Assembly (NCBI GenBank): GCA_963594125.1
Contig: CAVBCV010000002.1
Location: 42,211 to 106,210 of the forward strand
DNA: 64,000 nt
Direction: 5' to 3'
Source of the DNA: Lachnospiraceae bacterium
Lineage (GTDB): Bacteria; Pseudomonadota; Alphaproteobacteria; RF32; CAG-239
Below are positions 18,367 to 47,979 of this stretch, in pieces. The notes under the pieces are model-generated. The model had not been told where the DNA came from. It was given only the letters and a program-made list of their open reading frames with translations, and made no database searches. Each line of letters begins with the position of its first letter. Within the stretch, counting starts at the first letter, position 1. A program made the position numbers and the translations under genes.

Positions 18367-18411
18367 GTTATGTTTTTTATATAGATTAATTAAACAAAGA
18401 AAGGATTTAGC

Positions 18412-18969
18412 ATGTTAATTTTTATCGCCGCCGTGGTTGTTATCGGATTATATGTTATTGCGACTTATAACTGGTTAGTTAAATGCAACCAGCAAGTTAA
18501 AGAGGCGTGGAGCACTATTGACACCCAGTTAAAGCGCCGTTACGATTTAATTCCGAACTTGATTGAAACGGTTAAAGGTTACACCAAACATGAAAAATCA
18601 ACTTTGGAAAACATTGTTAAAGCTCGTAATTCGGCAATAAACGTAAGCGATGTGCAAGCCAAAGGCGAAGCGGAAAATATTTTATCCGGCGCGTTAAAAT
18701 CAGTTTTTGCTTTAAGTGAAAGTTATCCTGACTTAAAAGCTAATGAAAACTTTAAAGAACTACAAAAAGAGCTTGCGGAAACTGAAAACAAAATTCAGGC
18801 AAGCCGTCAGGTCTATAATGCCATGGTACTTGCATTAAACACCAAAGTTGAAACTTTTCCCAGCAACTTGATTGCCCGAAAATTTAACTTTAAGAAAGCG
18901 GATTTTTTCAAAATGACTGATGACGAATCAGCAAAAGCACAAAATGCTCCGAAAGTTAAATTTGAATAA
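18412..18969 (+). CDS. LemA family protein
   Basis: N-terminal TM followed by NWLVKCNQQVKEAWSTIDTQLKRRYDLIPNLIETVKGY, the LemA signature. Confidence 0.85.
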   Translation: MLIFIAAVVVIGLYVIATYNWLVKCNQQVKEAWSTIDTQLKRRYDLIPNLIETVKGYTKHEKSTLENIVKARNSAINVSDVQAKGEAENILSGALKSVFALSESYPDLKANENFKELQKELAETENKIQASRQVYNAMVLALNTKVETFPSNLIARKFNFKKADFFKMTDDESAKAQNAPKVKFE

Positions 18970-23563: not shown

Positions 23564-26500
23564 CTAGAATAACTGTGCCGAAGTGTTAGTGCTGCCGGCG
23601 GTTGACGACGGCGGAGGAGTTGCCCCCACTGAAGTTACCGGCGGAATTGCCTGTCGCTGCTGCTGTCTGCGCTTTTGCTTATTAGCCTCGGCATTATCAT
23701 CAATCAACGGAGTGGTCGGCTGAACATTATCAGCTTCATTATCCATATAAACAACGCCTTGAGTACCGCCGGAGGTTCCGGTACCGGAGCTGCCGCCACC
23801 GCTGCTCTTGCTTGAAGAACCTTGGTCACGGTCATCAATAAGAACCGTCGGCTTATTCAGAGCGTCAAGAGCTTCTTCATCGCTGCGGGCCGCAGTGCGT
23901 ATCCACAAATCTTCCTTAGGATAAATAATCAAACGAGTGCCGGCCGGAACATAAGTAATCGCCTCAATATTGGTTTTATCCTGCAAAATTTGATTAAACA
24001 TATCGTCCATGTTTTGCAAAAAGTTTTCACGGGCATCTTGCGCAGCCTCAGCGCGAGCATTTGAAGTAGTGCTGCCGTCAGATGAGGTTGAGGTTTCGCC
24101 ACTGGCGGCAATATACGCAACCGCGCTGCTCATCAAGGTGGTTACCATCGGCAAAGTATACTTTTTAAGCAACTGCTCATCAAGATAACCGATAGCTCCG
24201 CCGCGACCTTGAGCATCACCGGTTTGCGCCGATGAAAATTCAAACGCTGAGCCGTCAGGACGAATAAGCCGGTTCCAGGTAATAGAAACACGAACCGCGC
24301 CGCCGCTGTTACCGCCGCTTGAACCGCCGGAAGATGTGCCCATAACACGGCTACCGGCCGGAATAACGATATTGCGCCCTTGCTCGGCGTATACGTTGCG
24401 TTCAACAATCGCCGTTACCGGAGCGCTGTCTGAACCGTTGCTTGACATAATGGTACGAGCCAAAACAGCCGGAATCGGCTTATCAGCCAAAATCATTTCG
24501 CTCATATCAACACGCCAACTTGAAATTTGACGCGGAATACCGTCCCAATACGGCTGCATACCGTCAAAACTCTTGGTATCGGCATTGGTTGAAACTTTGC
24601 CGACCGTGATTTCCTGCCGACGAGCCGCCTGAGCCGCCGCTAACGCCGCCGCCCGAACCGGATCATATCTTTCTCCGGGACCAAAGCCGCCACCCGGACC
24701 TAAATTTGACGGATTGTTTCCGGTGCCGTAAGCGCCGCCCGAACCGAACGTGCCGGCCGGAATAAACATTTGTCCGCCTTTGTTGTCTTTAACTTCTTCA
24801 ATACCGATTAAGCCGCCTTCATTATCCACAATCAAGCCATCCGGCATTTTTTTACCGATTAAATTGCCAAGCTTATCAACAACATCATTGTTGATCAAAA
24901 TATCGCCAAGATAATTGCCGTCAGGCGTTAAGGCAATGCCGATGGTTTTAAGCCCGTATTTGCCGGTATCGTCCGTGGTGGAACCTTGCGGAACATCAAC
25001 AGCGCCGATATTGATTTTGCCGCTATCCGGTTTGCCGGTGCCATCGCGGCGGGGAGTGTTTGCCCAATCCGCCGGTTTAGGCTCGCTCGGTTTTACCACA
25101 TTATAATACTGCAGTTCTTTTGCTAATGCCAAAACTTTGCCGCTATCATCACTGATTTCACCGCTGCCGCTGATTTTACCGATAACTTTACCGTCATGAT
25201 TGATAACTTCGCCGTTTAAGCGCAGTTCGCCGATAACATTATTAGCGTCATCGCGGATAAAGTAATCACGGTTGCCGCGACCGATTAAAGTATAATCTTT
25301 GCTGACTAAAAAGCCTCTGTCGGCTTTGCCGATACGATTACCGGCAAAATTAAGCACTATTCCGTCACGGGTTAAATAACCAAGCGTGTTGCCTTCGTCA
25401 TCATAAACATAAAAATCATACAAGGCATAACCAATGTTTTTATTATCATTAACCACCGTACCGTCAGCCAAAACTTTACCTAAAATGTCGTTTTTATCGC
25501 TGATGACCGTGCCGTCTGAAGTTACACGACCTAAAAAGCTGTTATCATGGTTAAAGGCAACTTTATAGCGGAAAGCCATACCTAAAACCTCACCGCCTGA
25601 TGATAACGCCGTGTCATCAGGCTGCATATAACCGAGCTCTTTGTTAGTAGAGCTGATAATTTTGCCGCTGGTATTACTGCGACCAAGTATATTGTTTTCA
25701 AAGTCAATTACCGGGAATACTTCTGCCACCCGACCGATAAATTTACCGTCATTGTTATAATAGCGCCCATTCCAAGTAACACAGCCTAAATCTTCATGAT
25801 TGTAGTTAAGCAAATGTCCGAGCGGATTAACCGTGCCTAAGCCTTTACCGGCAAAGTCAGCAACCATGCCTGATTTTACGCCGAAGCCTATCATATTGCC
25901 AACCTCAGATACTGCCTGCCCATTGGTTAAAATTTTGCCAAGCACAACGCCGCGGCTGTTGCGGATTTCACCGCGCGGACCGATAACACCCAAAAATGAG
26001 CATTTGTTGTTAACCACGCTGCTCATATTGCTGATTTTACCGATTAATGATTTGTTGGTATCAGCAACAATATCACCACCTAAAACCGAACCGATTTTGT
26101 TACCGGCAAAATCTCGCACAGCGCCGAAAATATCAGCATAGCCAAGCATATCGCCACTGATTGAGGTTGCTAAAAATGATTGTCCGGCGCCGCCGATAAC
26201 CGGCATTTGCTTGTTATCAGGCGTTCCGGTTGCCGAAATGACTTTATAACCGGGGACAATTTTGCCGCTGATATTACCCTTTTCATCAGTGATTAAATTG
26301 GTTTCAGTTAACGAACCCAAACTCTGCCCATCAGCTGAAACGACAAAATACGGATTAAGCGTGCCGACAACAACTTTATTGGCTGCGTCAAGGGCTAAAC
26401 CGGTTGCAGTTAATTTATAATTTCTTTCAGCCGGAATGCCCTGCAATTCGGCATTAACACCGATATATCCGCTAAGCTCGCCCGCCTCAGTATACAAGGC

Positions 26501-27811
26501 TGAGAGCGGAACGGAATTTCCGACCAATAAATTATCGGCAGAATATACATATCCGAACGGCGAAACCTTAAATTTGTTAATGCCGTCTTCAGAAAAATCA
26601 GCTCCGATACCGCTTAAACCCACTAAATTGGAACTATTATCAAAAATCAGCGCTGTTTCAGGAGCGGCGCCGATAATGCGCCCGATATTATCATAAGCAA
26701 TTTTGCCTTTGGCATAACCAAGCGGCGTTCCGGTTACGGAAATAACCGCGCCGCTGCGCAAGATTTGAGCTTGCAGTTCAGCCAAATAATCAAACACCGG
26801 TCCCGATTTAATCACCTGACCGATAATTTTACCGTCAGGGTCTTTTACAAAACCGCGGGCAGTGATAGTACCTACGCTTTGCTGAGCCTTGTAAACGCTT
26901 CCGTCCGGCATAACGCGTCCTAAATATTTGCCTTTTAAATCCGTTGCCGTGGCGGCAATATCAATTTTAAAGCCGATAACCTCATTTTGATTGTTAATAA
27001 TTTTATCATCGGCGCGTAATTTGCCAACAACTTTACCCAAGCTGATAACCTCGCCGTTATAGGCAACCAAGCCAAGATATTTGCCGAAATTATCAAAAGC
27101 ATAACCGTTGGAAACCGCTTTACCGATAACTTTATTATTTTCATCATAAGCAAAACCGTTAGCATGAATTTTGCCGATAACTTTAGCCTCAAAATCCGTT
27201 ACTTTTCCGCCGGGGGCAATACTGCCGATAAAATCGCCGGTTGGCGAAACAACCATTTTGGCGGAAATTAATTTACCGTCTAACACATACCCGTTGCCGC
27301 TGTTACGATAAGCATAACCCATGGCGGAGATAAAACCGATATTTTGTCCTTCCATGCTGATATATTGCCCGTCGCCGGTTAAACGACCAATCGCGTCGCC
27401 TTTATCATTATAAACCAATCCCGGATATAAAACCGCGCCCAAAATATTGTACGAATCGTCAACCACTAAAGCATTCGGCAGCACTTTACCTACAATTTTG
27501 CCGGACGGAAGACGCACTGAGCCGTCATTATTTACTCGTCCTAAAAGTTTATTATCATTGCCGATAGCAATACCCTGAGGAATAATGCCGCCTTTAATCT
27601 CGCCTTTGTTATTTACAATAAAACTATCAGCGGTAATGTTGCCGATAACTTCATTGTCAAAGCTGACCACCGTACCGTCAGGAATAACCTTACCGATTAA
27701 ATCGCCGTTAAAATTAATGGCCGTAATTTCTTGCGCAAAAGCCGAACCGGCCGTCATACAAATGACCGCCGTTAACATGATTTTGCATAATTTCAGTAAT
27801 TTTCCTGCCAT
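23564..27811 (-). CDS. virB10: giant repeat protein with VirB10/TrbI C-terminal domain
   Basis: Start at MAGKLLKLCKIMLTAVICMTAGSAFA (signal or anchor; RBS ggagga upstream). About 1100 aa of about 11-residue tandem repeats (GxxIGxVxxDGxVxx). A Gly/Ser-rich linker follows. The C-terminus contains PAVLARTIMSSNGSDSAPVTAIVERNVYAE...RVSITWNRLIRPDGSAFEF...AITYVPAGTRLIIYPKEDLWI, matching the VirB10 beta-barrel domain. Confidence 0.7.
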   Translation of the reverse strand: MAGKLLKLCKIMLTAVICMTAGSAFAQEITAINFNGDLIGKVIPDGTVVSFDNEVIGNITADSFIVNNKGEIKGGIIPQGIAIGNDNKLLGRVNNDGSVRLPSGKIVGKVLPNALVVDDSYNILGAVLYPGLVYNDKGDAIGRLTGDGQYISMEGQNIGFISAMGYAYRNSGNGYVLDGKLISAKMVVSPTGDFIGSIAPGGKVTDFEAKVIGKIHANGFAYDENNKVIGKAVSNGYAFDNFGKYLGLVAYNGEVISLGKVVGKLRADDKIINNQNEVIGFKIDIAATATDLKGKYLGRVMPDGSVYKAQQSVGTITARGFVKDPDGKIIGQVIKSGPVFDYLAELQAQILRSGAVISVTGTPLGYAKGKIAYDNIGRIIGAAPETALIFDNSSNLVGLSGIGADFSEDGINKFKVSPFGYVYSADNLLVGNSVPLSALYTEAGELSGYIGVNAELQGIPAERNYKLTATGLALDAANKVVVGTLNPYFVVSADGQSLGSLTETNLITDEKGNISGKIVPGYKVISATGTPDNKQMPVIGGAGQSFLATSISGDMLGYADIFGAVRDFAGNKIGSVLGGDIVADTNKSLIGKISNMSSVVNNKCSFLGVIGPRGEIRNSRGVVLGKILTNGQAVSEVGNMIGFGVKSGMVADFAGKGLGTVNPLGHLLNYNHEDLGCVTWNGRYYNNDGKFIGRVAEVFPVIDFENNILGRSNTSGKIISSTNKELGYMQPDDTALSSGGEVLGMAFRYKVAFNHDNSFLGRVTSDGTVISDKNDILGKVLADGTVVNDNKNIGYALYDFYVYDDEGNTLGYLTRDGIVLNFAGNRIGKADRGFLVSKDYTLIGRGNRDYFIRDDANNVIGELRLNGEVINHDGKVIGKISGSGEISDDSGKVLALAKELQYYNVVKPSEPKPADWANTPRRDGTGKPDSGKINIGAVDVPQGSTTDDTGKYGLKTIGIALTPDGNYLGDILINNDVVDKLGNLIGKKMPDGLIVDNEGGLIGIEEVKDNKGGQMFIPAGTFGSGGAYGTGNNPSNLGPGGGFGPGERYDPVRAAALAAAQAARRQEITVGKVSTNADTKSFDGMQPYWDGIPRQISSWRVDMSEMILADKPIPAVLARTIMSSNGSDSAPVTAIVERNVYAEQGRNIVIPAGSRVMGTSSGGSSGGNSGGAVRVSITWNRLIRPDGSAFEFSSAQTGDAQGRGGAIGYLDEQLLKKYTLPMVTTLMSSAVAYIAASGETSTSSDGSTTSNARAEAAQDARENFLQNMDDMFNQILQDKTNIEAITYVPAGTRLIIYPKEDLWIRTAARSDEEALDALNKPTVLIDDRDQGSSSKSSGGGSSGTGTSGGTQGVVYMDNEADNVQPTTPLIDDNAEANKQKRRQQQRQAIPPVTSVGATPPPSSTAGSTNTSAQLF

Positions 27812-27821
27812 AGTTAACACT

Positions 27822-30800
27822 TTAATTCCTCCGATTTTGAGCAACTTCCTGCAATGCGTAACCTGATACATTTTTATCTAAGTCAACAAACGAGCCGTTG
27901 CTTTTTAAGTATCCGATGTCTTTACCGTTACCTGATATAACTCTGCCGGTTGCCGCCAAGCGTCCCAAATATTTACCGTCATTTGAAACTATCGCCGTTC
28001 CGGTTTTATAGGACATACCTAAAATAGCATTTTGATTATCAACCGCCAAGCGCCCTGATAAAACCCGTCCGATAACAGAATTATCAAACCCGCGAACCGT
28101 GCCGTCAAAGCCGACATAAGCCACAACTTTATCCTGATTGTTAATTACAATATCGGCATCGGCAATTTCACCTATTAAACGACCTTCTTTATTTACCGCT
28201 TTACCATCGGAATAAACTTTGCCGATAACCACATTTTTGGTATTGATTACCGCGCCGTCAGGCAATACGGAACCGATAATTTTGCCGCCGTAATTAATTA
28301 CAACGCCGCGTTTAAGCACACTTAAATTTTTATCGCTTGCGCCGCCGGGGAGTATAAAAGTTGTCCGTTTAGAATTTAAATCGCGCACTCCGCCGGAAGC
28401 ATCAGTGTATCCGGTATAATTTCCGAATAAGTCAGTTACCACCGATTCAGGCACAACCTCGCCGATTACATTGCCGTTATCAGCGTTTAAGATTAATCCG
28501 TCACTGTTTTCAAGACCGGCTTTTTTACCTTTTTTATCAATAACCGTGCCATCAGCTTTAACATAACCTAAATACGAACCGTCATAACCGATTGCGGCGC
28601 CGGTGCGAACAATGCCGCCCGCGTATTGGTGCTTATCATCAAACCAGCGACCTTTGGCATCAGCCTGCCCCAAGTGTTCGCCGAAACGAGTTACAACTCT
28701 GCCATCCGCATTAATAAAACCTACATTTTTGCCGTTAAAATCAACCACTTTACCAAACGGAAGCAGTTTGCCGATGTTGCCGATATAAAAGCTCATGCCA
28801 TCACCGTAAATGCGGTCAATCACAGCGCCTTTATTATCATAAACATTGCCGTCAGCAAACAGACGACCGATAATATTACCGTCTGAATTTAACAAAATAT
28901 TTTTTTCAGGCAACGCCACCCCGATTATCTTATTGTTTTTATCAGCAATGTATTTGTGCAAAAACAACTTGGCGTCAGGGTGAGCTTTAATTTGCAAGGA
29001 GCCGTCAGATTCAAACGTACCTAACAATTTTCCATTTAAATCAAAGGCATAAAACGGCTGCGAGATTTTACCCAAATAAATTCCGTCTGAGGTGAATACT
29101 TCATCGTCAGTATTAACACATCCCACCGGCAATAATGCCGCAGAAACAACGTTGCCGGTCGGCACTAATCTTCCGACTACCCCGCCTTCAGCATTAAACG
29201 CCACTTTATACCGCGCAACTTTGCCGATAATATCGCCGTTATCATTTAACACACTGCCATCAGGATTTACGCAGCCGACATATTTTTTATCTTCATTTTT
29301 AACAATACCCTGCTCATCGGCGTCGCCAAGATAATTGCAGCTATTGTCAAACACGCGACCGGTTTTTACAACATCGCCCATATAAATATTTTTTTCATTA
29401 TAAACACTGCCGTCAGCATACACATGATAAGGCATATCCTGCCCATCTTTGGTAATAACGCCGGTTTTATTTAAAACTCCGACATTAGAGCAGCCCCAAC
29501 CGATTATAGTACCGCCGCGAACACCTTTCGCCACAAATTTGGAGCCGTTAGCCTCTTTAACCAAAGTGTTCGGCAACATACGACCCAACACCTGACCGCG
29601 GGTATTAATAACTTCTCCGGTCGGCGAAACATTGCCTAAAACCTTGCCTTCCGGTGTTATCGGAATTAAATCTGCGCGAACAATAGCGCCGATTTTGACT
29701 GCTTTGTTACTGATGACATTGCCGTCTTTATCCACCCTGCCAACTATACCGCCGTCAGCGCCCACTACGGAACCGTCTTTTTTTACATAACCCAATACTT
29801 TGCCGTCATCACTGACTGCCAAATTATTATACTCTCCTACTCTGCCGACAATATTACCGCGCTCATCAATAATAGTGCCGTCAGGCTGCATTTTACCGAT
29901 AACCCGCCCGTTAGCGTCTAAAATAGTGCCATCTTCAAGCTTTTTCCCGATTTTGTTACCGTTAAAATCATAAATTGTGCCGTCTTCATCAATATAGCCG
30001 ACCGCATTTCCATCCGCGTCATAATATATCTGCCGCGACGCGCCGAGTTTACCGATTTTTTCATTGCTTAACTTATAGGCATCGCCGTTTTCATCAACAT
30101 AACCAACCACATTGCCATCCGTATCAACAATAGAGTTATCAGGCATAACCACGCCTAAAACATTGCCGCTTTCATCAACCGCGGTACGTCCGGGTTTGCT
30201 GACATAGCCGATAACATTGCCGTTCATATCAACAACTTCGCCATTAGAATTTAACCTGCCGATAACGTTACCTTCTTTATCTACCACCGTGCCGTCTTCA
30301 AGCACTCTGCCGATAACATTACCGTTGGAATCGTAAACATATCCGGCTTCTACCGATTTACCGATTTTTACCCCATTACGATCAACCACTGTACCATCAG
30401 ATATTTCTTTACCGATAACATTGCCGTTAAAATCAAAAGCTTTACCATCAGCGCTGACTTTACCAATAACATTGCCGTTATCGTCATAAATCAGTTTTTT
30501 ATTACCGGCGACACCGATAATATTGCCGTTTTCATCAACGATGAGTCCGTCTTCATTAACCCTGCCGATAACATTACCGTCTTCATCACGAACATAACCT
30601 TCATCATCAATATAACCGATGATTTTACCATCCGGACCATAGGCTATGCGGTTTTTGCCATCATCAGCCATGGCTTTGCCGATAGTTTTACCGCTTTTAT
30701 CCAAAACATTGCCTTTAGCATCCAAAGTGCCAAGTTTGTTACCGTTTAAGTCAACTACTTGCCCGTTCGGCGTAACATATCCGATAATATTGCCGCTTGT

Positions 30801-31937
30801 ATCTCTGACAATTCGGCTGTTTCCGGGCGCTGTTTTGCCAATTAAGCTACCATCTTTATCAACAACATTGCCATAAGCGTCAGCCGTGCCGATTTCGTTA
30901 CCGTTTAAATCAACAGCCTGTCCGTCAGGAGTGATATAGCCGATAATATTGCCGTCCGCATCTTTGATAACCATGGTGTCACCGGTTGAAACTTTACCGA
31001 TTACATCGCCGCTTTTATCTAAGACATTGCCATTAGAATCAACCGTACCAAGGCGTTCGCCTTTTAAGTCAACCGCTTTACCGTTCGGGGTAATGTAACC
31101 AATGATTTTTCCGTTAGAATCGCGGATAACCAAATTTTCACCGGAAACGGCTTTACCGATAACATTACCATTTTTATCAATAACATTGCCATTAGCGTCA
31201 AGATAGCCGATTTCATTGCCGTTTAAGTCAAACGCGCGTCCGTCAGGGGTGACATAGCCAATAATATTACCGTCAGCATCTTGGATAAGCATGCGTTCAG
31301 CGCCATCTGAAGCGCCGCCGGAAGGAGTGGTGGTGCAAAAGTTGCAATCGGCCTGCGTAACTGCTTTACCGTCAACCGGAACTTTTTCAGCTTTGGCATT
31401 TTGCGCACCGACATTAGTTTCATGCCATGAGATAATAAAATTATTCTGCACATTGCCGCCGGTGGTCGGGAACCATTGCATGGTAACATTACAAGTTTGA
31501 TTGCCGCGTAATTCTTTGCCGCTGCAATCATCATCATAGCGGAATCCCTCAAACGGAGGTTCGGCAAGCTTTACTGAAACAATGCGAATAGGCGTTTTGC
31601 CGGTGGTGCCGATAGTCAGCACGTTTTTAGCATCTGTGCCCAACACAACCTGCCCCATATTAACCGGGTTCGGCGTGGTGGTAATCGGGAGTTCGGTTTC
31701 CTCCACTTCTTCAAACTCAAGATTATTGATGAGAGGATTGGTGTTTTCATTAAAATCTATTACATTGTCATCAGCGGTAAATACCGGCTCTTGTGATTCT
31801 TCGGGAGCCGCCCCGCTTGAAAACAACAGCAACAAACCAAATAAAAACACCACAAAAGAAGTAATACCAACAATCAAAATTATTCGGTTGGTTTTACGAA
31901 CATATCTTTCAGAGTGTGTTAAAACTTCTTTACTCAT
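27822..31937 (-). CDS. giant repeat protein with VirB10-like N-terminal topology (cytoplasmic tail, single TM, Pro/acidic linker)
   Basis: MSKEVLTHSERYVRKTNRIILIVGITSFVVFLFGLLLLF gives a cytoplasmic N-terminus plus one TM. An acidic/Pro linker and a Cys-containing globular segment follow. Then about 1100 aa of the same 11-aa repeat family (DxNGNxIGxVxPDGxxVD...) organised in about 44-aa super-repeats. It ends 10 nt upstream of the VirB10-domain gene. Confidence 0.6.
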   Translation of the reverse strand: MSKEVLTHSERYVRKTNRIILIVGITSFVVFLFGLLLLFSSGAAPEESQEPVFTADDNVIDFNENTNPLINNLEFEEVEETELPITTTPNPVNMGQVVLGTDAKNVLTIGTTGKTPIRIVSVKLAEPPFEGFRYDDDCSGKELRGNQTCNVTMQWFPTTGGNVQNNFIISWHETNVGAQNAKAEKVPVDGKAVTQADCNFCTTTPSGGASDGAERMLIQDADGNIIGYVTPDGRAFDLNGNEIGYLDANGNVIDKNGNVIGKAVSGENLVIRDSNGKIIGYITPNGKAVDLKGERLGTVDSNGNVLDKSGDVIGKVSTGDTMVIKDADGNIIGYITPDGQAVDLNGNEIGTADAYGNVVDKDGSLIGKTAPGNSRIVRDTSGNIIGYVTPNGQVVDLNGNKLGTLDAKGNVLDKSGKTIGKAMADDGKNRIAYGPDGKIIGYIDDEGYVRDEDGNVIGRVNEDGLIVDENGNIIGVAGNKKLIYDDNGNVIGKVSADGKAFDFNGNVIGKEISDGTVVDRNGVKIGKSVEAGYVYDSNGNVIGRVLEDGTVVDKEGNVIGRLNSNGEVVDMNGNVIGYVSKPGRTAVDESGNVLGVVMPDNSIVDTDGNVVGYVDENGDAYKLSNEKIGKLGASRQIYYDADGNAVGYIDEDGTIYDFNGNKIGKKLEDGTILDANGRVIGKMQPDGTIIDERGNIVGRVGEYNNLAVSDDGKVLGYVKKDGSVVGADGGIVGRVDKDGNVISNKAVKIGAIVRADLIPITPEGKVLGNVSPTGEVINTRGQVLGRMLPNTLVKEANGSKFVAKGVRGGTIIGWGCSNVGVLNKTGVITKDGQDMPYHVYADGSVYNEKNIYMGDVVKTGRVFDNSCNYLGDADEQGIVKNEDKKYVGCVNPDGSVLNDNGDIIGKVARYKVAFNAEGGVVGRLVPTGNVVSAALLPVGCVNTDDEVFTSDGIYLGKISQPFYAFDLNGKLLGTFESDGSLQIKAHPDAKLFLHKYIADKNNKIIGVALPEKNILLNSDGNIIGRLFADGNVYDNKGAVIDRIYGDGMSFYIGNIGKLLPFGKVVDFNGKNVGFINADGRVVTRFGEHLGQADAKGRWFDDKHQYAGGIVRTGAAIGYDGSYLGYVKADGTVIDKKGKKAGLENSDGLILNADNGNVIGEVVPESVVTDLFGNYTGYTDASGGVRDLNSKRTTFILPGGASDKNLSVLKRGVVINYGGKIIGSVLPDGAVINTKNVVIGKVYSDGKAVNKEGRLIGEIADADIVINNQDKVVAYVGFDGTVRGFDNSVIGRVLSGRLAVDNQNAILGMSYKTGTAIVSNDGKYLGRLAATGRVISGNGKDIGYLKSNGSFVDLDKNVSGYALQEVAQNRRN

Positions 31938-31949: not shown

Positions 31950-33626
31950 TTACTGAATACGAACCACACTGCAGAACACACCGTTACGACCGAGCTGGCT
32001 GCAAATTTCATCACCGGCATCTATGGATTGAACCGGTCCGATTCTTAAGTGGAACAGCTCGCGTCCTTGTCCGTCAGCCGGAGCGTCAACCGAATAAAAC
32101 GGCTGATAACCGCCAAGCGCCGATGAATATTTGCGCGAAAGTTCTCCCCACAAGTTTTCCAAATTGCCAACATCAGAATCGGTGCCAAGTTCTACGGAAA
32201 TGCTGGCGACATCATCGCCTTCAAAGCCACTGCCGTAACGATAATCAGCAAACGGATTTTTGCCTTCGGGCAGCTTGCTCTTGTTATCAATATGATGCAT
32301 TTTGCTGTAATCAAGGTTAAGAGCGCCTTTACCGCCAACACCGGCATTAAAGGACGAGCCTTTGCCGCCCGCGCTACCGCCGTTGTTACCGGCATTACCT
32401 GAAAGGGCGTTTACGTCAACACCGACAAAGGTTGCTCCGCCCATGTTGCCGCCCGCGCCGTTAGCGCCATTTGCTCCGGCACCATAGCCGTTATAATTAT
32501 CAGCGCCACCCGGTCCAAAGCCTTGAACTACACCGCCTTTACCGGAAACAGAAGCTTTTTTGCCTGACGGTAAAGCAGGCGGAACCTGCCAATCATCACT
32601 TTCGGCATATTCAACATATTCAAGTCCGGCATCATCGGCGCGGCGCAATTTTAAGCAAATTAAGCGTTTGCCGTTGCGCAAAACCATATCGCCGACACCT
32701 TCAACAATGATTAAACGGTTGTTAGGTCCGGCAGTACGGAAGCCGACCGGAGTTTCAACACGCTCAACAATTAAGGTTACAATCGGGCGCTGAACCATAT
32801 TTAAGGCTTTTTCGCCAAAATCAATATAGGTGAAAATATCGTCACGCCAAACGCGTTCCGGCGCAATAACCACATCATCAGGGTTAGGAACATAAACTTC
32901 AATATCAAAACGGAATTTGGTCGGGTCAAGCGGAATGCTCTGAATCCAATCTTCTTTTTGATTGCGCTTGGTAAACAATGAATCGGCCGATTTATTGCTG
33001 CCGCCGCGATATGCGCTGGCATTTACGCGACTACCGCCGGAACTACCACCTCCGATAGCGCCGACGGAACTCCCGTTTTTTTCCGCGTCCACAACCTCAA
33101 TATCAATAATTGAGTTAGTTAAGCGCTCAGTATTTACACCCTCACTGCGAGCATAAAACGCATATTTATTGCCTGAGCGACCAAAAACCATAATATTAGT
33201 ATCAACACCAACCATCGCGCCTGATTTAGGATACAATAGTAATGTGTTAGGTCCGGAAATACGGGCGTCAAAAGTTTTGCTATCGCCGATGTAAACATCT
33301 TCAACCAACTCCCATTCCGGAAAGTTTACAAGCGTTATCATACCTTCGCGCAGGCGTACCGGCAAAACCAAATCAGGCGACCAATAATAGCGGGAATATG
33401 CCGGCTTGCTTTGCCCTTCGCCCAAGTTTTGCAATGGGTCTAACCATGCGCTTTGCATCATACCCAAGGAGCTGATACCGGTATAACCCATGTTCATCGG
33501 CTGATACATGCCCTGACTTTGGTCGGCATTTTGGTTTAAGCTGTCAATGCTCGCTTGCGCGTGCGCTGTCAACGGCGCCGCCATTAATGCAAAAACTGAC
33601 AATATTTTACTAACACAATGTTTCAT
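31950..33626 (-). CDS. virB9: VirB9/TrbG-like protein fused to a C-terminal SPOR-like domain
   Basis: Signal peptide. VirB9 N-domain (MITLVNFPEWELVEDVYIGDSKTFDARISGPNTLLLYPKSGAMVGVDTNIMVFGRSGNKYAFYARSE). VirB9 C-domain (VVIAPERVWRDDIFTYIDFGEKALNMVQRPIVTLIVERVETPVGFRTAGPNNRLIIVEGVGDMVLRNGKRLICLKLR). Long Gly/Asn-rich linker. The C-terminal approximately 70 aa (ASISVELGTDSDVGNLENLWGELSRKYSSAL...ELFHLRIGPVQSIDAGDEICSQLGRNGVFCSVVRI) has the SPOR two-half pattern. Confidence 0.75.
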   Translation of the reverse strand: MKHCVSKILSVFALMAAPLTAHAQASIDSLNQNADQSQGMYQPMNMGYTGISSLGMMQSAWLDPLQNLGEGQSKPAYSRYYWSPDLVLPVRLREGMITLVNFPEWELVEDVYIGDSKTFDARISGPNTLLLYPKSGAMVGVDTNIMVFGRSGNKYAFYARSEGVNTERLTNSIIDIEVVDAEKNGSSVGAIGGGSSGGSRVNASAYRGGSNKSADSLFTKRNQKEDWIQSIPLDPTKFRFDIEVYVPNPDDVVIAPERVWRDDIFTYIDFGEKALNMVQRPIVTLIVERVETPVGFRTAGPNNRLIIVEGVGDMVLRNGKRLICLKLRRADDAGLEYVEYAESDDWQVPPALPSGKKASVSGKGGVVQGFGPGGADNYNGYGAGANGANGAGGNMGGATFVGVDVNALSGNAGNNGGSAGGKGSSFNAGVGGKGALNLDYSKMHHIDNKSKLPEGKNPFADYRYGSGFEGDDVASISVELGTDSDVGNLENLWGELSRKYSSALGGYQPFYSVDAPADGQGRELFHLRIGPVQSIDAGDEICSQLGRNGVFCSVVRIQ

Positions 33627-33644: not shown

Positions 33645-34391
33645 TTATTCGGCTTTATTACGTGAAAGCGAATATCTGGTAACAGTAAAGCCTACCGGAT
33701 TATTCAAACGTTCACCATATTTAACGGTCTTTTTACGATACATAATTCTTAAAGAAGCGGTCCAATAATTAATTTCCGGCGCGGAAGAATCAGGATACAT
33801 ATCACGAGTTTCATATTCAACCTGCCATAAACCGCGACCAAGCTCGTTTACGGTCATAATCCGCACCACTCTGATTAAACCGCGGTTACGAATTATATTT
33901 AATGCCGGTCTGGCGGTTTTTTCAACAAACGACTGATAAACAGCCGATGATGACATCTCCTGCAGCTGTCCGCCCGGCATCCAACGAGATTCCATTTCAG
34001 AAACATCGTTGGTAAAGGCGCTGCGCAACAACACATACTCGCGAACAAAAACTTCAGTTATGGCTTTGCGGTCTTCCATATTGCGCAGAGGAACGATGTC
34101 ATAAACCTGTTCCTGTTTGTTTTCAAACGTTAACAAAAACGGCTCAAGGCGGTACAGCGGCAAAAGCTGTGTAATTGCCAAAATTAAAACCAAGTTACAA
34201 CACAAGCTGATAGCAACGATAACCGCAAATGCGCGCGCCGTCCACAAATAGCGCTTTTCACTGGCGTTTACCACAATATCTTCAGCGCGGCGTCTTTGCG
34301 GCTGAGGGCGACGCACCGCCTGACGCGGCATTCCGCCCTGTCCGGTAATTAAACGCTGCTGCGTGTTGCCTATACCTAACCTATCTGCCAT
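33645..34391 (-). CDS. virB8: VirB8-like protein (paralog a)
   Basis: Cytoplasmic N-terminus, one TM (FAVIVAISLCCNLVLILAI), periplasmic NTF2-like domain ending in NPVGFTVTRYS (VirB8-type NPxGFxVTxY motif). Confidence 0.7.
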   Translation of the reverse strand: MADRLGIGNTQQRLITGQGGMPRQAVRRPQPQRRRAEDIVVNASEKRYLWTARAFAVIVAISLCCNLVLILAITQLLPLYRLEPFLLTFENKQEQVYDIVPLRNMEDRKAITEVFVREYVLLRSAFTNDVSEMESRWMPGGQLQEMSSSAVYQSFVEKTARPALNIIRNRGLIRVVRIMTVNELGRGLWQVEYETRDMYPDSSAPEINYWTASLRIMYRKKTVKYGERLNNPVGFTVTRYSLSRNKAE

Positions 34392-34404: not shown

Positions 34405-34593
34405 TTATATTGTTGCGACAAACCAATCCGGAAGGGTGTGCGGAAGCTCAACTTCAATGCAGGCGCACGGAGAAAGTTTAAGTTCGTTTACGTCTTTACC
34501 GACACCTACCGGCTCAGGCTCATAGTATGAACCGAACAAACTGCATGCCGACAAGACAACAATCACCAAAAATAGAATTATTTTTTTATACAT
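34405..34593 (-). CDS. virB7: small lipoprotein, VirB7-like
   Basis: 62 aa. MYKKIILFLVIVVLSAC lipobox. Located between two virB8 paralogs and upstream of virB9, as VirB7 is in rvh-type loci. The call is by position and size. Confidence 0.5.
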   Translation of the reverse strand: MYKKIILFLVIVVLSACSLFGSYYEPEPVGVGKDVNELKLSPCACIEVELPHTLPDWFVATI

Positions 34594-35504: not shown

Positions 35505-38500
35505 TTACTCTTCACTTCCGCAATAGGGTTCTTCAAAGTTGTTCAAATTGTTCTGAAACTCTTTTTCAGCCTCGTCTTCATATTTTGAACGCGCCTGTTC
35601 ATCAGCCCGAGCGGTTTTGATTTTTTCAGATAGTTCGGAGTTCGGCTCGCTGTTATCGTCTAAGTCAACCAACTCTTCATTATCCATTTGCAAAGAGCCC
35701 ATTATGTTCTTTACCTTTTTAATTTTTTCTTCCAAGGCGTCATTTAACGGCTTAACCTCGGCAATTTGCTTTGCGCCCTCAGCGGTTAAAGCGTTTTTGC
35801 GACTGTCAAGCGCCGCGGAAATGGTGTTGAAAGTGCCCTCATCCGATAAGTCAAAATCAGCCGGAGGAGTATAGCCTATGTCAGCAAATTTCTTTACCAA
35901 GAACTCGCGAGTTTCATTCATTTTAACTTCAAGCTCATCTACCGAATCCTGATAATGAGTTTCCATTTCAACAAAGTTCAGATAATCGCCGAAAACGTTG
36001 CGGGTAAACAAAGCCTTGCGGTAAGTATTCATTTTATGAATATCCTCATCGCTGGTGTCGTCACTGTCATCAGCTTCAGCCTCGTCAAGATATTGCATGA
36101 TTTTTACAATAGTTTTGCTAAAGTCTAAGCCTCCGTTGGTTACCTTAGGCGGGAAGGTTATGACCGCATCGCCGGTATAGGACAAGATTTGCGCCAATTC
36201 GCTCCTACCTTCCGACTTATCGGTTGATTCATTTTCAACCGCGCCGGTCTTAAAATCAGCGCCATCATTAAAGGTGATATAACCTCTGCCCATAATTACC
36301 TTGACTGATTTAACATCAGTACATTTTTTGGTGGTAACCTTTTTGTGGTAGACTTTATATTCGCCGTTTTTAATATCAACCACATAATTGCCGTATGCAC
36401 ACGGGTATTTATCGCCGCGGAGCACTTCATCACCGGCATCGGTGTTGTTCATGCCGCCTAAAACCTCAGTAACATCAACATCGCGCTCAACAAAGCCGTT
36501 CGGCTCTAAAACAAGTTTCCAAATCGGCGGAATTTCTTGTCCGTAGGCTAAAAAGTCAGCGCGGGTGGTTTTCCATAAATCTGATTTAACAACATTGCCG
36601 AAATCAACTCCGTCAAAGTGAACAACCTCTCGCATCGGCGGAGTGTAGCTGATGGTTATGCCTTTCGGCGCCTGAAAATCAGCGAGTTTCGGGTCAAGTC
36701 CGACAAAGTAATTATCATCAGCCTGATAGCATTTTTCACCGCCGCACATTTGTTCAACAATAGCGGTTGCCGCCAATTTGGCTAAAGCTTTAACATCGCC
36801 GAACAGAAGCAAATCAGAACCGGCAAAGGTTGCGTTTACTTCTTGCATGCTTTGCATCATTTCGCGGTGAATTTGCAAAATTTGCTGATGTCCCGCCAAT
36901 GTGTAACGAGCATCACCTAAGCCTTGAATTTTGCCATAAGCCTCATCAACGCTGGCAAGAGCCGCGGTTTTAAAGGCGTCAATCGCATTATCGGTAACGC
37001 CAAGCACCGCCGACAAATAAGTTTGTTTAAGCTCAGCCTCTTCCGTTGCAAAGCCGGAAGCTTCCGAAACAAAGCTGCTGCCGGAAAGCGAGTGCTGCAC
37101 AATGCTATCTTGCTGCTGTTGCATTGCTTGCTTTAAGGCTTGCATATTTTGATATTCAAGAGCCGAAGCATTGGCGGCATAATCGCTCTTTAAACGGGCG
37201 ATTTTTTCATCCAGACTTTCAAGCTGAGAGCGCAACTTGTCTATTTGCTCGCGCTTAGCCTCAATGCCGTTCAAGGCTGTTTCTTCTTTAGCCTTGGCTT
37301 CCTCAGCCTTCTTTTGCATATAAGCAACGCCTTGTTCGCCGCGTTTTTCAAAGCTCTTGTCATAAGCAGATGATTCTTTGCTCTTTTCCTGTGAAATTTT
37401 AATAGTCTGCTTTTGATAATCAGCGTTTGCCTCCGCTTCCTGACGCTCTTTGACCGCGTCATTATATTTTTCCTTCATGCCGTTAAGCTCAAGGTTAGCG
37501 GCGTCAAGACTTGCGTAAACGGAGTTTTTCTGATTTTCAAGCACGGCTAAACTTGCCAGAAAATCATCACGCAATTTTTTAACCGCAGCATCGGCTTTTT
37601 GCTTAGCCGCCGCCAAGTTTGAAACCGGCGCATCTGCGGCAACAGCGGCTTCGGCAAACGGAAGCATATTAGTTAAAGCCTCAGCGTTAAATTCTTTAAC
37701 CGTATCAATGGTGAACTCTTCAGGCAATTCAGGCTCGCCGTTAAAATCAGTGATGGCGCCATTGATAGACATTGCCAAATTAACGGCGACAACTCTTAAA
37801 TCAGCGTTATTGATATATTTTTTGATATTTTCATACTTTAATTTAAGATACTGGTCATAAACATGTTTTTCATCGGTCCAAATCGGGTACGCGCCTTTCA
37901 TGCCGCCCCATTTAGGGCTGGCAGACGCCATATCCGCGCCGATTGCTTTCGCCATTTCAGCGCCAAGCTGCCAGGTCATCAGCTCCTCGCGGCGGTTTTC
38001 GGCTTCCGCTTTAGGCTCGTCGCTCGGGCGCAATAATGAACTGTCGCCCAAGCCGCTTGCATTTTCCTGCTTTAAGCGTTCGGTATTTTTTTCCATATTT
38101 TCAATATTGCCGTCACCGTCCGCTATTAAGCTGGTGGAGTAATCATCTGAGGTCAGCTCCAAGGTTTTTACCGCTTTGGCGGCTTTATAGGCTGAAATCA
38201 GCCAGCCGCTCATACCGGCGCGGTTTGAATATTTGTTAATGCCGTAGCTGCTGCAAATTTTGTTGCCGCAGAGAATATCGCCTTCCTGCAAATGTTTTAA
38301 GTTTTCAGGCGTTACCGGTTTGCCGCTGTCGCAGTAAAGGTTAGTGCCGGTATAGCTGCACCCCTCGCCTGCCCAAACATCAACCGGTGTTGCATAATAT
38401 TTATTTACAAATTTAACGGCGCACTGCTCTGATTTTAACAGTTGCTCAATGGCTTTTTCATGAAGTTTTTTCATTTTAGCATATTCTTCAAAGCCGCGCT

Positions 38501-39563
38501 TATATTCAGGCAACTGACGTTTGAGGTTATGCGCGGTTAAAGCAAGCTGCAAAGTTTGATAAGCGTTGTTGGCTTCCGCCGAGCTTTGAAACTGCTTAGC
38601 GGTGCCGGTAAACTGAGTTTTAACCTCATACGGCTTAGCATCGGTAACCGTAGGAACATTAGCGGCGCCCGTGGTGACCGGAGTAACCGTATAATCGCCG
38701 TAAGAAGTTTGCGCAAATGCCATTTGCGTGGTTTGAGTGTAGGTAAACACGTCATTATAACTTGTTTTTTCCTCTTCACCGGCATGATTTATTTCATCAT
38801 CGGTCGGCATACGCGGATTAATACCCGCCAAAATAGCCTGCGCGACTTCATATTGAGCTTTAACCGCCATTAATTCTTCCGTGATTTTAAGCATAGAATC
38901 GTAAATGGCATTCAGCTTATAATAGTTGGTCCATACGCCCAATTCCTCATCATTCGGAGAGGCGCTGTCGCAAGCGGTGCTGTCGCCATTTTCTTTGCCT
39001 TGAACATAACAGCCGCTTAAAGCGTCAAATTCTTCTTTAAGCTTAATCATGCGGGCTTCCAAGTCGCGAACGGCGATGTACATTTCAATCATAGAATCGT
39101 TGCCGAACTCCATACCCTTTTGGCGATAAGCTTTTTTAACCGCCTCTTGATATTTCGGGAATCTTTTCAGCATAGCGGGCGGATAAGTATAAAACAGCTC
39201 GTCCATTGCCGCTACGATAGACTCTTCATCGGTTATATCGGCAACTTCTGAGGTTTCAATAGTGCGAACCGAGGCAATAGCCGGATAACCTTTTTCTTTG
39301 TGCAAAACAGAAGTATCTATTTTGAACGGAATAATTCTGCCCGCTGATTTTAGAGCGTCAAGCACTTCCGCCTGTTTTTGATTGTAGGAGTCATAAACAG
39401 TTGAAAGCTTGGTGAACACGCCCTGCACTGCCGAGCCGACATCACCCGCCACATCAAGGGTCGGGGTAATCGGGGTCGGAGGAATCATCCACGCATCAGC
39501 CTTTAACGGCAGTAATGCGATAGTAAAGGTAAATAAACCTATATGTAAATATGATTTTTTCAT
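35505..39563 (-). CDS. giant secreted coiled-coil protein (1352 aa), unknown function
   Basis: MKKSYLHIGLFTFTIALLPLKADA signal peptide and no further TM. Long heptad-like, charged helical regions. A Cys-containing middle segment and an acidic tail. Lies in the T4SS operon between the secreted helical proteins and virB8b. Confidence 0.6.
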   Translation of the reverse strand: MKKSYLHIGLFTFTIALLPLKADAWMIPPTPITPTLDVAGDVGSAVQGVFTKLSTVYDSYNQKQAEVLDALKSAGRIIPFKIDTSVLHKEKGYPAIASVRTIETSEVADITDEESIVAAMDELFYTYPPAMLKRFPKYQEAVKKAYRQKGMEFGNDSMIEMYIAVRDLEARMIKLKEEFDALSGCYVQGKENGDSTACDSASPNDEELGVWTNYYKLNAIYDSMLKITEELMAVKAQYEVAQAILAGINPRMPTDDEINHAGEEEKTSYNDVFTYTQTTQMAFAQTSYGDYTVTPVTTGAANVPTVTDAKPYEVKTQFTGTAKQFQSSAEANNAYQTLQLALTAHNLKRQLPEYKRGFEEYAKMKKLHEKAIEQLLKSEQCAVKFVNKYYATPVDVWAGEGCSYTGTNLYCDSGKPVTPENLKHLQEGDILCGNKICSSYGINKYSNRAGMSGWLISAYKAAKAVKTLELTSDDYSTSLIADGDGNIENMEKNTERLKQENASGLGDSSLLRPSDEPKAEAENRREELMTWQLGAEMAKAIGADMASASPKWGGMKGAYPIWTDEKHVYDQYLKLKYENIKKYINNADLRVVAVNLAMSINGAITDFNGEPELPEEFTIDTVKEFNAEALTNMLPFAEAAVAADAPVSNLAAAKQKADAAVKKLRDDFLASLAVLENQKNSVYASLDAANLELNGMKEKYNDAVKERQEAEANADYQKQTIKISQEKSKESSAYDKSFEKRGEQGVAYMQKKAEEAKAKEETALNGIEAKREQIDKLRSQLESLDEKIARLKSDYAANASALEYQNMQALKQAMQQQQDSIVQHSLSGSSFVSEASGFATEEAELKQTYLSAVLGVTDNAIDAFKTAALASVDEAYGKIQGLGDARYTLAGHQQILQIHREMMQSMQEVNATFAGSDLLLFGDVKALAKLAATAIVEQMCGGEKCYQADDNYFVGLDPKLADFQAPKGITISYTPPMREVVHFDGVDFGNVVKSDLWKTTRADFLAYGQEIPPIWKLVLEPNGFVERDVDVTEVLGGMNNTDAGDEVLRGDKYPCAYGNYVVDIKNGEYKVYHKKVTTKKCTDVKSVKVIMGRGYITFNDGADFKTGAVENESTDKSEGRSELAQILSYTGDAVITFPPKVTNGGLDFSKTIVKIMQYLDEAEADDSDDTSDEDIHKMNTYRKALFTRNVFGDYLNFVEMETHYQDSVDELEVKMNETREFLVKKFADIGYTPPADFDLSDEGTFNTISAALDSRKNALTAEGAKQIAEVKPLNDALEEKIKKVKNIMGSLQMDNEELVDLDDNSEPNSELSEKIKTARADEQARSKYEDEAEKEFQNNLNNFEEPYCGSEE

Positions 39564-45972: not shown

Positions 45973-47157
45973 TTAATTGCCGAAAAAGCCATCCATACGG
46001 TCGCCGAGTTCCTCAGCTCTTTTACCGGTTTGGTAAGTTTCTCTGCCTAAAACAGCAGCGCCACCTGCCGCATCAGCTCCACCCTGAATACCGCCGGTTA
46101 CAGTACCAACCGCCGTGCCAACACCGGAGTTAGCAATGCCTGACGATCCGGCGTTAGTGCCGCTGACGCCGTCAATCACATAGCCCAAATTAGCTAAAAA
46201 GTTTTGGAAATTACCGTTAAGTTGACCGCTGCTGGTGTAAATTTGGTCAGCGCTCATCCCAACCGACGCCGCCAACGCGCCCAATTTATCTAACGCCTTG
46301 CCGTCACCGGAGATAATATCGCCGATACGCACCGCGCCGTTTTCAGTGGCTTTTTTGAGTAATTTAGCGTATTCAACCGCGTTAAGAGCCTGATTGGCAC
46401 CGGCAATACCGGCATTGGCGATGCGAATAATATCCGCCATTACCTGCGCCGGATTTTTTTGGCATACACCGTTTTGAATTTTGCCGGAACAGCATTGACG
46501 CGCGCCGTTGTTATAACGACAGCCGTTGGAATCCCAGTCGGTAACCGTAGGAGCATTGCTACTGGTCGGCGGAATTATACCGCCGCCGTTAGCGCCTTCA
46601 GCGCCGCTGCTGACGCCGGGGATAGCCGGCAGATTAAAGCCGCCGGATTGTGTGCCAGGGTCATCTTTGCCGTCAGGATCTTTATCGCCGGGGGTTTTGT
46701 CAAGCTGGTCTTGCATTTCTTGGTTAGGATCTCGGTCAGGGTTGCCGTCCGGGCATTCTTGACCTTTACAATCTTTGCCGCCGTCGTCTGTTTCCGGAAT
46801 GTCGCTGCCTTGAATTGACGAGCCGCCGCGAATAAAGTTGCCGTAGCTGAACTGAGAATCTTCAAGATTAACTCCGGCAAAATAGTTAATAAACGGCATC
46901 ATTACCGCTAATAACGACAAACCAATCATGATATAAGCAAGGTGCTTAAAGCTGATTTTGTTAAAAATCGCCAGCGTGGTGAACATAATTAAGCCGAAAC
47001 CGGCAATAACATAAACAATACGGCGAACATCTATCACCGTGGTCATCATTTTTTGCGATATTACCTGAAAGATGTTATCCGCCGCCATGGCGCTTGCCGG
47101 AAGCAGCAGCACGCCCAAAAGCAGAGTTAAAAACAAATATTTAAATTGATGTTTCAT
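45973..47157 (-). CDS. VirB2/TrbC-like pilin core with about 280-aa Gly-rich, Cys-containing C-terminal extension
   Basis: Signal peptide MKHQFKYLFLTLLLGVLLLPASAMA. Two hydrophobic helices (IVYVIAGFGLIMFTTLAIF / AYIMIGLSLLAVMMPFINYF) as in T-pilins. A long G/D/P-rich tail with CxxxxC pairs follows. Confidence 0.5.
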   Translation of the reverse strand: MKHQFKYLFLTLLLGVLLLPASAMAADNIFQVISQKMMTTVIDVRRIVYVIAGFGLIMFTTLAIFNKISFKHLAYIMIGLSLLAVMMPFINYFAGVNLEDSQFSYGNFIRGGSSIQGSDIPETDDGGKDCKGQECPDGNPDRDPNQEMQDQLDKTPGDKDPDGKDDPGTQSGGFNLPAIPGVSSGAEGANGGGIIPPTSSNAPTVTDWDSNGCRYNNGARQCCSGKIQNGVCQKNPAQVMADIIRIANAGIAGANQALNAVEYAKLLKKATENGAVRIGDIISGDGKALDKLGALAASVGMSADQIYTSSGQLNGNFQNFLANLGYVIDGVSGTNAGSSGIANSGVGTAVGTVTGGIQGGADAAGGAAVLGRETYQTGKRAEELGDRMDGFFGN

Positions 47158-47602: not shown

Positions 47603-47979
47603 TTAGAAGCCATTACCTGTTGATTGTTTGAAGGTATCATCAAATCCGGTTGAACCTTCTTGAATTTTCTTTTGACCGGTTGCGTAATCAACAATCGCAC
47701 CGGCAGCGGCAAGCACCGCCAAACCAACGGCTAAACCTGCGAACCATGCCCATTTTACTTTACCGAAAATAGCTTGGAACGCCAAGCCGACTAAACCGAA
47801 ACCGCCGACTACGAAAATAATGGTTTTAACGGCTTTGAACACGTTAAGAGCTTTATTAGTAGCAATATCCATAACCGTCGTACCACCAACAGTTTGAGCA
47901 CTTGCATCGCCGACCAAAGACATCGTAAAGACTAAGCCTAAGGCGAACAATGTGAATAAATTGTTTTTAAGAAACTTCA
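47603..47979 (-). CDS. virB2: VirB2/TrbC-like T-pilin (first gene of operon)
   Basis: Start at MKFLKNNLFTLFALGLVFTMSLVGDASA (ATG 47979, RBS AAGGAG). Two TM helices (IIFVVGGFGLVGLAFQAIF / AWFAGLAVGLAVLAAAGAIV). Confidence 0.6.

Follow-up and report, generated by a model that had tools for sequence, protein, structure and literature searches.

A VirB9 protein of a type IV secretion system with a C-terminal SPOR-family domain in uncultured gut Alphaproteobacteria

To our knowledge, little is understood of how type IV secretion systems (T4SS) of the VirB type (IVA) are anchored and placed within the cell wall. The links to the peptidoglycan known so far are a lytic transglycosylase (VirB1) and, for systems of type IVB, an OmpA-like lipoprotein that is a protein of its own. 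In this study, we analysed a stretch of 64,000 nucleotides (hereafter the window) of contig CAVBCV010000002.1 (assembly GCA_963594125.1), placed by GTDB in the Alphaproteobacteria, in which the gene at 31950-33626 on the minus strand codes for a VirB9 protein that continues, after a long linker, into a C-terminal module resembling the SPOR domains of cell-division proteins. The locus thus raises the question of whether this tail is a true SPOR domain and whether it may attach the secretion machine to the cell wall. Peptidoglycan-binding modules are known on outer-membrane components of secretion machines; we know of no earlier description of a VirB9 with a SPOR domain, and the acidic cleft reported below is unusual. 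Our literature search found no paper on VirB9 with SPOR, and the two terms SPOR and type IV secretion appeared together only as chance co-mentions. The fusion is carried by a lineage of gut Alphaproteobacteria and by at least two plasmids of cultured Sphingomonadales, in which a cell-wall-binding fold is built into an outer-membrane core subunit. It offers a simple and testable handle on T4SS anchoring, and cultured carriers are available.

Architecture of the protein and homology of its tail

The open reading frame (ORF) starts with ATG and codes for 558 amino acids (aa). Its identity as VirB9, proposed in a sequence-only reading of the window, is confirmed by the Pfam family PF03524 (CagX/VirB9), which scored 48.4 bits (its gathering score is 34.2) and covered positions 4-195 of the 198 of the profile, and by the place of the gene between VirB8 (upstream) and a TrbI-domain VirB10 (downstream), an order kept in about 55 loci. 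PF03524 is also a precomputed match in all 120 homologs listed. The VirB9/TrbG/CagX core extends over aa 78-325 (32652-33395, minus strand, as are all features of this gene), and the conservation profile, built from 35 sequences filtered to less than 80% identity, shows conserved blocks at aa 41-180 and 221-335. Inspection of the translation revealed a putative Sec-type signal peptide at aa 1-23 (33558-33626) with a basic n-region, a hydrophobic core and an AHA cleavage motif, the cleavage falling between MKHCVSKILSVFALMAAPLTAHA and QA; no lipobox was seen in it by eye. This segment is variable across the family and helical in the full-length AlphaFold2 model.

As judged from its sequence, the protein belongs to the VirB9 superfamily as a divergent member and is not an equivalog of Agrobacterium VirB9, since the NCBIfam model TIGR02781 (P-type VirB9 equivalog) gave only 35.3 bits, far under its cutoff of 217.7, and the full-length profile found no sequence match among the solved VirB9 structures of the PDB. 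The full-length AlphaFold2 model was poor, with a mean predicted local distance difference test score (pLDDT) of 40 and values of about 25-50 in the VirB9 core; therefore, the core, with the two beta-sandwich domains known from solved VirB9/TraO, is not confirmed by structure and any docking of the tail is not visible.

The core is followed by a low-complexity linker rich in Gly, Ala, Asn and Ser at aa 346-461 (32244-32591), delimited by composition, conservation and pLDDT. With 30 Gly, 14 Ala, 13 Asn and 9 Ser among its 116 aa, it bears out the long Gly/Asn-rich linker described earlier, whose quoted peptide lies at aa 364-397. No other part of the protein is conserved so little (identity to the query of 0.13-0.26, gaps up to 0.59), and the linker is probably disordered, with a pLDDT of about 27-40 in a model that is itself poor overall. 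In contrast to the linker, the last 97 aa or so (aa 462-558) are conserved like the VirB9 core (0.66-0.90). They begin with the motif YRYGSGF (aa 462-468; 32223-32243), near-invariant in the family as YxYGSGF, in which Y462, G465, G467 and F468 are each kept in 90% or more of the sequences and which is unstructured in the model of the tail (pLDDT <50). Next comes the SPOR-family domain at aa 475-558 (31953-32204), with the elements beta1 (476-483), alpha1 (486-499), beta2 (509-514), beta3 (524-532), alpha2 (535-546) and beta4 (553-556). It contains the cleft residues E479, D483, L524, H526, R528 and S553 and a conserved cysteine pair, C542/C552. The two tail peptides on which the sequence-only reading had based its proposal were located at aa 475-504 and 523-557. 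A C-terminal module after the linker was therefore correctly recognised, but its size of about 70 aa was too small, as the conserved unit comprises about 84 aa (475-558) plus the YxYGSGF motif.

Three lines of evidence agree on the nature of this module. In the first place, the Pfam SPOR family (PF05036) matched the full-length protein with 18.9 bits, just under the gathering score of 21 bits, and the isolated tail (aa 459-558) with 23.7 bits (E-value 6e-5), which is above it. The family matched 28 of 28 diverse tails of the VirB9 family, with a best E-value of 9.3e-8, and a precomputed PF05036 match is present in 10 of the 120 closest homologs. Secondly, the AlphaFold2 model of the tail, with a pLDDT of 75-92 over its folded part, has the beta-alpha-beta-beta-alpha-beta order of elements of the RNP-like SPOR fold, and the same fold recurs confidently within the otherwise poor full-length model. 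When this fold was compared with two programs, known SPOR structures ranked above all generic ferredoxin-like folds. It must be noted that the PDB yielded no useful match by sequence, whether it was searched with the isolated tail, with its profile or with that of the full-length protein, and that fold comparison alone worked there. Thirdly, a profile of the tail was searched against 1.84 billion (1.84e9) representative proteins and gave 228 matches which, besides VirB9 fusions and fragments, were proteins with two or three SPOR domains; among the 150 matches listed, ordinary SPOR proteins were recovered at whole-library E-values of 8e-12 to about 5e-5. All ten reciprocal matches tested were strong PF05036 proteins (66-113 bits), and they share with the tail the G-P motif, the Trp of helix 1 and both cysteines.

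Because the score of the isolated tail, its predicted fold and the reciprocal search agree, we consider it established, on sequence and modelling grounds, that the tail is a true SPOR homolog. The sequence-only reading had staked its SPOR proposal on a profile match and a structural match, and both are present. The contrary view, in which the tail would be an unrelated ferredoxin/RNP-like fold (e.g., a ring-building motif) matched by Pfam by chance, is very improbable and was essentially excluded: a chance match would explain neither the isolated tail passing the gathering score together with 28 of 28 family tails, nor the recovery of strong PF05036 proteins by the reciprocal search, nor the G-P motif, Trp and cysteines common to both groups, nor the ranking of SPOR structures above generic ferredoxin-like folds by two programs.

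Homology and fold are common to the tail and to the SPOR domains of Escherichia coli FtsN, DamX, DedD and RlpA, Pseudomonas aeruginosa RlpA and Bacillus subtilis CwlC. In both groups there is a four-stranded antiparallel sheet with two helices on one side and a G-P turn after beta3, the basic residues of beta3 are kept in part (R528, with His or Arg at position 526, in the VirB9-attached domains), and in both the domain is periplasmic (by prediction for the tail) and C-terminal, after a disordered linker. They differ in their carriers, which are divisome proteins or lytic enzymes in cell division and a secretion-machine subunit in our case. The FtsN SPOR domain also has a disulfide. However, it joins beta1 to beta4, unlike the cysteine pair of the tail, which joins alpha2 to beta4 as in the two-cysteine SPOR subfamily. 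In this regard, the nearest sequence relatives of the tail are two-cysteine multi-SPOR proteins of uncultured bacteria (e.g., P0155, P0163 and P0212 of our set), which have in common with it both cysteines (>99%), the helix 1 Trp and an RLRxGP motif, but lack a VirB9 core. Two further proteins of this set, P0154 and P0177, combine ankyrin repeats with two-cysteine SPOR domains, an odd pairing of eukaryote-like interaction and cell-wall-binding modules.

Distribution of the fusion

More than 1763 homologs were found in the protein database, and nearly all of the 120 best have 533-578 aa, most of them covering 95-100% of the query. Public annotation of the fusion proteins gives TrbG/VirB9 or hypothetical protein only. 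In assemblies sampled at one genome per species, the gene was found at 57 loci, all from uncultured Alphaproteobacteria of animal guts (human, ruminant, rabbit and other hosts), on contigs of up to 582 kb; the nearest relatives are B13_bin.31 (96% identity) and MGYG-HGUT-00610 (94% identity). Core and tail share one reading frame in 56 of the 56 loci in which the gene is not cut by a contig end. Across these 56 species the linker varies between 83 and 147 aa (median 108) and its sequence is unconserved. There are also more divergent fusions, whose tails score as low as 44 bits, and those with named sources come from metagenome-assembled genomes of Alphaproteobacteria.

The survey was extended to 72,556 plasmids, of which 20 carry VirB9 homologs matching aa 3-353 at 25-38% identity. 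A tblastn search of the tail against the same plasmids found nothing. This result would mislead, because the gene ends of the best VirB9 matches, examined with a broader SPOR profile, revealed diverged tails. The three closest plasmid homologs (35-38% identity) are unusually long, with 430-550 aa. Two of them, on plasmid p1 of Sphingosinicella sp. BN140058 and on a plasmid of Erythrobacter aureus YH-07, end in a diverged SPOR-like domain that the broad two-cysteine SPOR profile matched over its full length with 34-35 bits (E-value about 5e-7, computed for an assumed search of one million sequences). The T4SS clusters of both plasmids include a coupling protein and lack the giant beta-flower proteins described below. 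The remaining one, on plasmid pMVF16-3 of Microvirga sp. VF16 (L064, 2246-3898), is a VirB9 of 550 aa with a Pro/Ala-rich linker of roughly 150 aa and a C-terminal module with two cysteines. This module is SPOR-like by eye, yet it matched neither Pfam nor the SPOR profiles built here, and the protein may represent this same fusion in a still more diverged form.

The tail is absent from all five of the more distant plasmid homologs examined. The VirB9 proteins of Magnetospirillum, Roseibium, Paracaedimonas (Holosporales) and Microbulbifer have the CagX/VirB9 core and the VirB8-VirB10 position in common with our protein and with canonical VirB9/TraO/TrbG, but they measure 318-362 aa and end right after the C-terminal domain of the core, with neither linker nor tail. 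That of Azospirillum has 444 aa, the extra length being N-terminal, and also lacks the tail. Since two of the three closest plasmid homologs carry such tails and none of the five more distant ones does, the fusion, as far as these sequences go, marks one branch of alphaproteobacterial VirB9 and is not a trait of Rickettsiales/Holosporales. The sequence-only reading had suggested a look at VirB9 orthologs of those orders, and the one from Paracaedimonas lacks the fusion.

The glycan cleft and the possible role of the tail

In the crystal structure of the RlpA SPOR domain with glycan, the highly conserved Q270 forms hydrogen bonds with MurNAc (through the lactyl carboxylate) and with GlcNAc (through the N-acetyl group). 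F274 makes a CH/pi stacking contact with a sugar, the contact of L307 is hydrophobic, a basic pocket consists of R302, R309 and R311, and many contacts are made through backbone atoms. The equivalent set in FtsN is Q251, S254, W283, R285 and I313, and the substitution Q251E in FtsN reduces both binding to denuded glycan and septal localisation. In order to place the tail in this scheme, 207 ordinary SPOR domains and 20 divergent VirB9-attached domains were aligned to the tail profile. An hhalign comparison of this profile with four E. coli SPOR domains was weak (E-value 0.014) and was used for register only; that register agrees with the alignment of the 207 domains.

The alignment revealed an extensive replacement of the cleft residues that sets the tail apart from the cell-division SPOR domains. 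The position of RlpA Q270 and FtsN Q251 is E479 in our protein, invariant in the 28 tails of the core family; it is Glu in 17 of 19 VirB9-attached domains against Gln in 148 of 176 ordinary ones. D483 (position 25) stands for RlpA F274, and VirB9-attached domains have Asp, Asn, Gly, Ala, His or Ser there, never an aromatic residue, against Phe or Tyr in 121 of 180 ordinary domains. S553 (position 95) stands for FtsN I313, with Ser or Asn against Leu or Phe, and at position 19, to which no equivalent was assigned, Ser or Ala face the Trp of ordinary domains. In the core family, H526 replaces R309/R285; the divergent VirB9-attached domains have Arg (13 of 20) or His (6 of 20) at this place and ordinary domains mainly Arg (157 of 207). 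The diverged Sphingomonadales plasmid tails carry Asp in place of the Gln and Gly in place of the aromatic residue. Other features are retained. L524, equivalent to RlpA L307 and FtsN W283, is mostly Leu or Ile in VirB9-attached domains and variable in ordinary ones; R528, equivalent to RlpA R311, is Arg in 20 of 20 (ordinary domains: Arg in 115, Gln in 76); C542 and C552, which have no RlpA or FtsN equivalent, are Cys in 20 of 20 and in >99% of ordinary domains. The tail is thus, by its sequence, an atypical SPOR domain, a member of the family by homology and fold that lacks the Gln and aromatic functional signature. As this signature is absent, behaviour like that of FtsN is not assumed.

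The same combination occurs outside VirB9. Most domains of the two-cysteine multi-SPOR proteins are canonical, with the Gln/aromatic pattern (148 of 176 at the Gln position), unlike the tail, but a minority are of the Glu type and lack the aromatic residue, like the tail. Fourteen ordinary SPOR domains have Glu at the Gln position, and 13 of these are the N-terminal domain of a multi-SPOR protein. Glu never occurs with the aromatic residue (0 of 14, against 110 of 148 Gln-type domains; Fisher p = 3e-8). Because of this exclusion, the acidic variant looks like a recurrent natural SPOR subclass rather than drift, in which the residue held to be most critical for ligand binding is systematically acidic. 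The 13 proteins with an N-terminal, non-aromatic domain of the Glu type are P0163, P0166, P0180, P0189, P0193, P0215, P0217, P0219, P0221, P0223, P0225, P0234 and P0241; the other aligned SPOR domain in each of them lacks Glu at this place, except in P0163, where both have it. This arrangement suggests a division of labour between SPOR subtypes inside one protein.

With regard to function, the reading to which we give about an even chance is that the tail is a flexible, multivalent peptidoglycan tether of the T4SS outer-membrane complex, with altered or weakened specificity. A SPOR domain of what would be a two-cysteine alphaproteobacterial subtype is joined to the C-terminus of VirB9 by a linker of about 116 residues. 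After Sec export, the VirB9 core would assemble with VirB7 and VirB10 beneath the outer membrane. In VirB7/9/10 core complexes, VirB9 lies under the outer membrane and is present in many copies per machine. Each copy would then dangle a SPOR domain into the periplasm, and, as a random coil of 116 residues is estimated to span about 8 nm from end to end, with a contour length of about 44 nm, the tether could reach the peptidoglycan layer. Many such domains could provide an avid and flexible attachment to the sacculus that would stabilise or position the machine. The ligand would most likely still be a glycan strand on the face of the beta-sheet, given that the fold, the beta3 Arg (R528) and the cysteine pair are kept, and binding could be maintained through backbone contacts and R528. 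With two new acidic residues in the groove, and with the Gln, the aromatic and a hydrophobic residue gone from it, the binding would differ in specificity or affinity.

Several points weigh against such a tether. The effect of Q251E in FtsN implies that the tail may bind peptidoglycan poorly or not at all, and the charges of E479 and D483 would be expected to repel the lactyl carboxylate that defines denuded glycan. The position of the VirB9 C-terminus with respect to the membrane is taken from canonical VirB9 structures, as the core of our model has a pLDDT of about 30. The closest functional precedent also calls for caution. DotK (and Lpg0657) of the Legionella Dot/Icm system is a peptidoglycan-binding fold in a T4SS outer-membrane complex and, like the tail, lacks some canonical ligand residues, but it has an OmpA-like fold, it is a separate lipoprotein and not a VirB9 fusion, and it belongs to a type IVB and not a VirB-type IVA system; the authors of the Dot/Icm structure in eLife judged that DotK and Lpg0657 are probably not direct peptidoglycan binders, since key residues are missing (PMC7511231). 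Arguments from residues are, on this evidence, unreliable in either direction, and their loss should not be over-read.

The sequence-only reading went further and proposed that the SPOR domain could bring the machine to division sites or poles. In this explanation the tail would act as a canonical SPOR domain, and denuded glycan made by amidases at the septum would recruit new T4SS to division sites and hence to new poles. We consider it unlikely. It is consistent with true SPOR homology and the correct fold, with the conservation of R528 and of a Leu at the place of RlpA L307, with the heavy reliance of RlpA binding on backbone contacts and with the fact that Q251E weakens but does not abolish binding by FtsN. 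There are precedents for polar placement of a T4SS through a peptidoglycan-binding subunit and for the recruitment of envelope machines through septal peptidoglycan. As regards the latter, the AMIN domains of PilQ (and the LysM domain of TsaP) resemble the VirB9 fusion as wall-binding domains attached to an outer-membrane channel subunit, and the PilQ AMIN domains are reported to be implicated in recruitment to division sites or poles (PMC5285504, PMC10653833). PilQ differs from our protein in that the fold is unrelated, the channel is a secretin and the AMIN domains are N-terminal and not at the end of a long C-terminal tether. What speaks against canonical behaviour is that nearly all VirB9-attached domains have Glu or Asp at the best-conserved position of the cleft, the very change that weakens FtsN, that the equivalents of F274 and I313 are lost as well, and that the strict separation of Glu from the aromatic residue in ordinary domains points to a separate functional subclass. 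SPOR homology therefore stood, while recognition of denuded glycan at the septum is doubtful with the cleft residues replaced, and septal targeting by the VirB9 tail is unproven.

It is equally unlikely, in our estimation, that the SPOR fold has been repurposed as a protein-protein module that does not bind peptidoglycan and forms an extra periplasmic ring, its possible partners being the beta-flower proteins or VirB10, the VirB7-like lipoprotein or the tail itself. The loss of the canonical carbohydrate-contact side chains would fit this view, as would the invariance of 40 of the 100 columns of the tail, which is above the usual for SPOR domains (they share <20% identity), the family-specific features that lie off the cleft (L489/E490 in helix 1, the YxYGSGF motif and an exact R-x-Q C-terminus) and the unusual giant periplasmic partners encoded in the operon. 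However, a variable and disordered linker of about 108 aa suits a tether that reaches and binds better than a fixed ring, the Sphingomonadales plasmid fusions keep the tail where the giant beta-flower proteins are missing, and R528, typical of glycan binding, is kept. The full-length model, being too poor to reveal docking, lends no support to a protein interface.

Somewhat less probable still is the proposal that VirB9-attached and Glu-type multi-SPOR domains form an acidic-cleft class with a different ligand, such as glycan that has been edited, for instance by de-N-acetylation, which makes it positively charged. According to a prediction, such glycan would not be bound by canonical SPOR-RlpA. 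If true, where this T4SS is placed or how stable it is would depend on how the cell wall has been edited, in parallel, through an unrelated fold, to the control of Legionella Dot/Icm by PgdA/DotK, and the ligand of this subclass would extend the current model in which all SPOR domains read denuded septal glycan.

The type IV secretion locus

The T4SS cluster lies on the minus strand at about 22.6-48.0 kb of the window. It begins with VirB2 and a protein of 394 aa that is weakly VirB2-like, VirB4 and three ORFs with no family match, continues with a coiled-coil protein of 1352 aa, VirB8, a lipoprotein of 62 aa, a second VirB8 and the VirB9 described here, and ends with a beta-flower protein of 1371 aa, a beta-flower-TrbI/VirB10 protein of 1435 aa and VirB11. 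Related loci keep the same order of genes between the coiled-coil protein and VirB11.

The VirB8 paralog directly upstream of VirB9 (33645-34391, minus) matched Pfam VirB8 with 75.9 bits and is syntenic in 56 loci. Between both VirB8 paralogs is the gene of the 62-aa lipoprotein (34405-34593, minus), which has an LSAC lipobox and a weak lipoprotein-signal match, is kept in 56 loci and matched no family; it is likely the VirB7 equivalent and hence a candidate partner of VirB9. Directly downstream of VirB9, the 1371-aa beta-flower protein (27822-31937, minus; Pfam Bflower_2, 294 bits; 55 loci) has an N-terminal membrane anchor. It is followed by the giant VirB10 of 1435 aa (23564-27871, minus; 54 loci), in which beta-flower repeats (Bflower_2, 171 bits) precede a C-terminal TrbI domain (112 bits). 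It is unusual for a T4SS to have a VirB10 enlarged by about 1000 beta-flower residues and, next to it, a paralogous protein with such repeats. These two beta-flower/YD-like ORFs (23564-31937) overlap by 50 nucleotides, and in the related locus L043 they are a single ORF (11543-18484).

At the place expected for VirB5/VirB6, the ORF at 35505-39563 (minus) codes for the 1352-aa protein, which is secreted, rich in coiled coils and present in 49 loci, and which matched no Pfam family. The two VirB2/TrbC-like genes are at 45973-47157 and 47603-48007 (both minus); one codes for a normal pilin of 134 aa and the other for the 394-aa protein, in which a weak N-terminal pilin match (E-value 0.0024) is followed by a long extension.

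The cluster is flanked by genes of topoisomerase I, GpsA, a DegT aminotransferase and an AddA-like helicase-nuclease; it is chromosomal, because these flanks are housekeeping genes. Neither a coupling protein nor a relaxase was found among the scanned ORFs of the window, and the unscanned ones are all too short for either. A conjugative element was rejected, given the housekeeping flanks and the lack of a coupling protein or a relaxase-sized ORF in the window. Finally, a cluster resembling a type IVb pilus, with a secretin (PF00263), PilO (PF06864) and a T2SSE ATPase, adjoins the T4SS on the opposite strand (50238-59832, plus).

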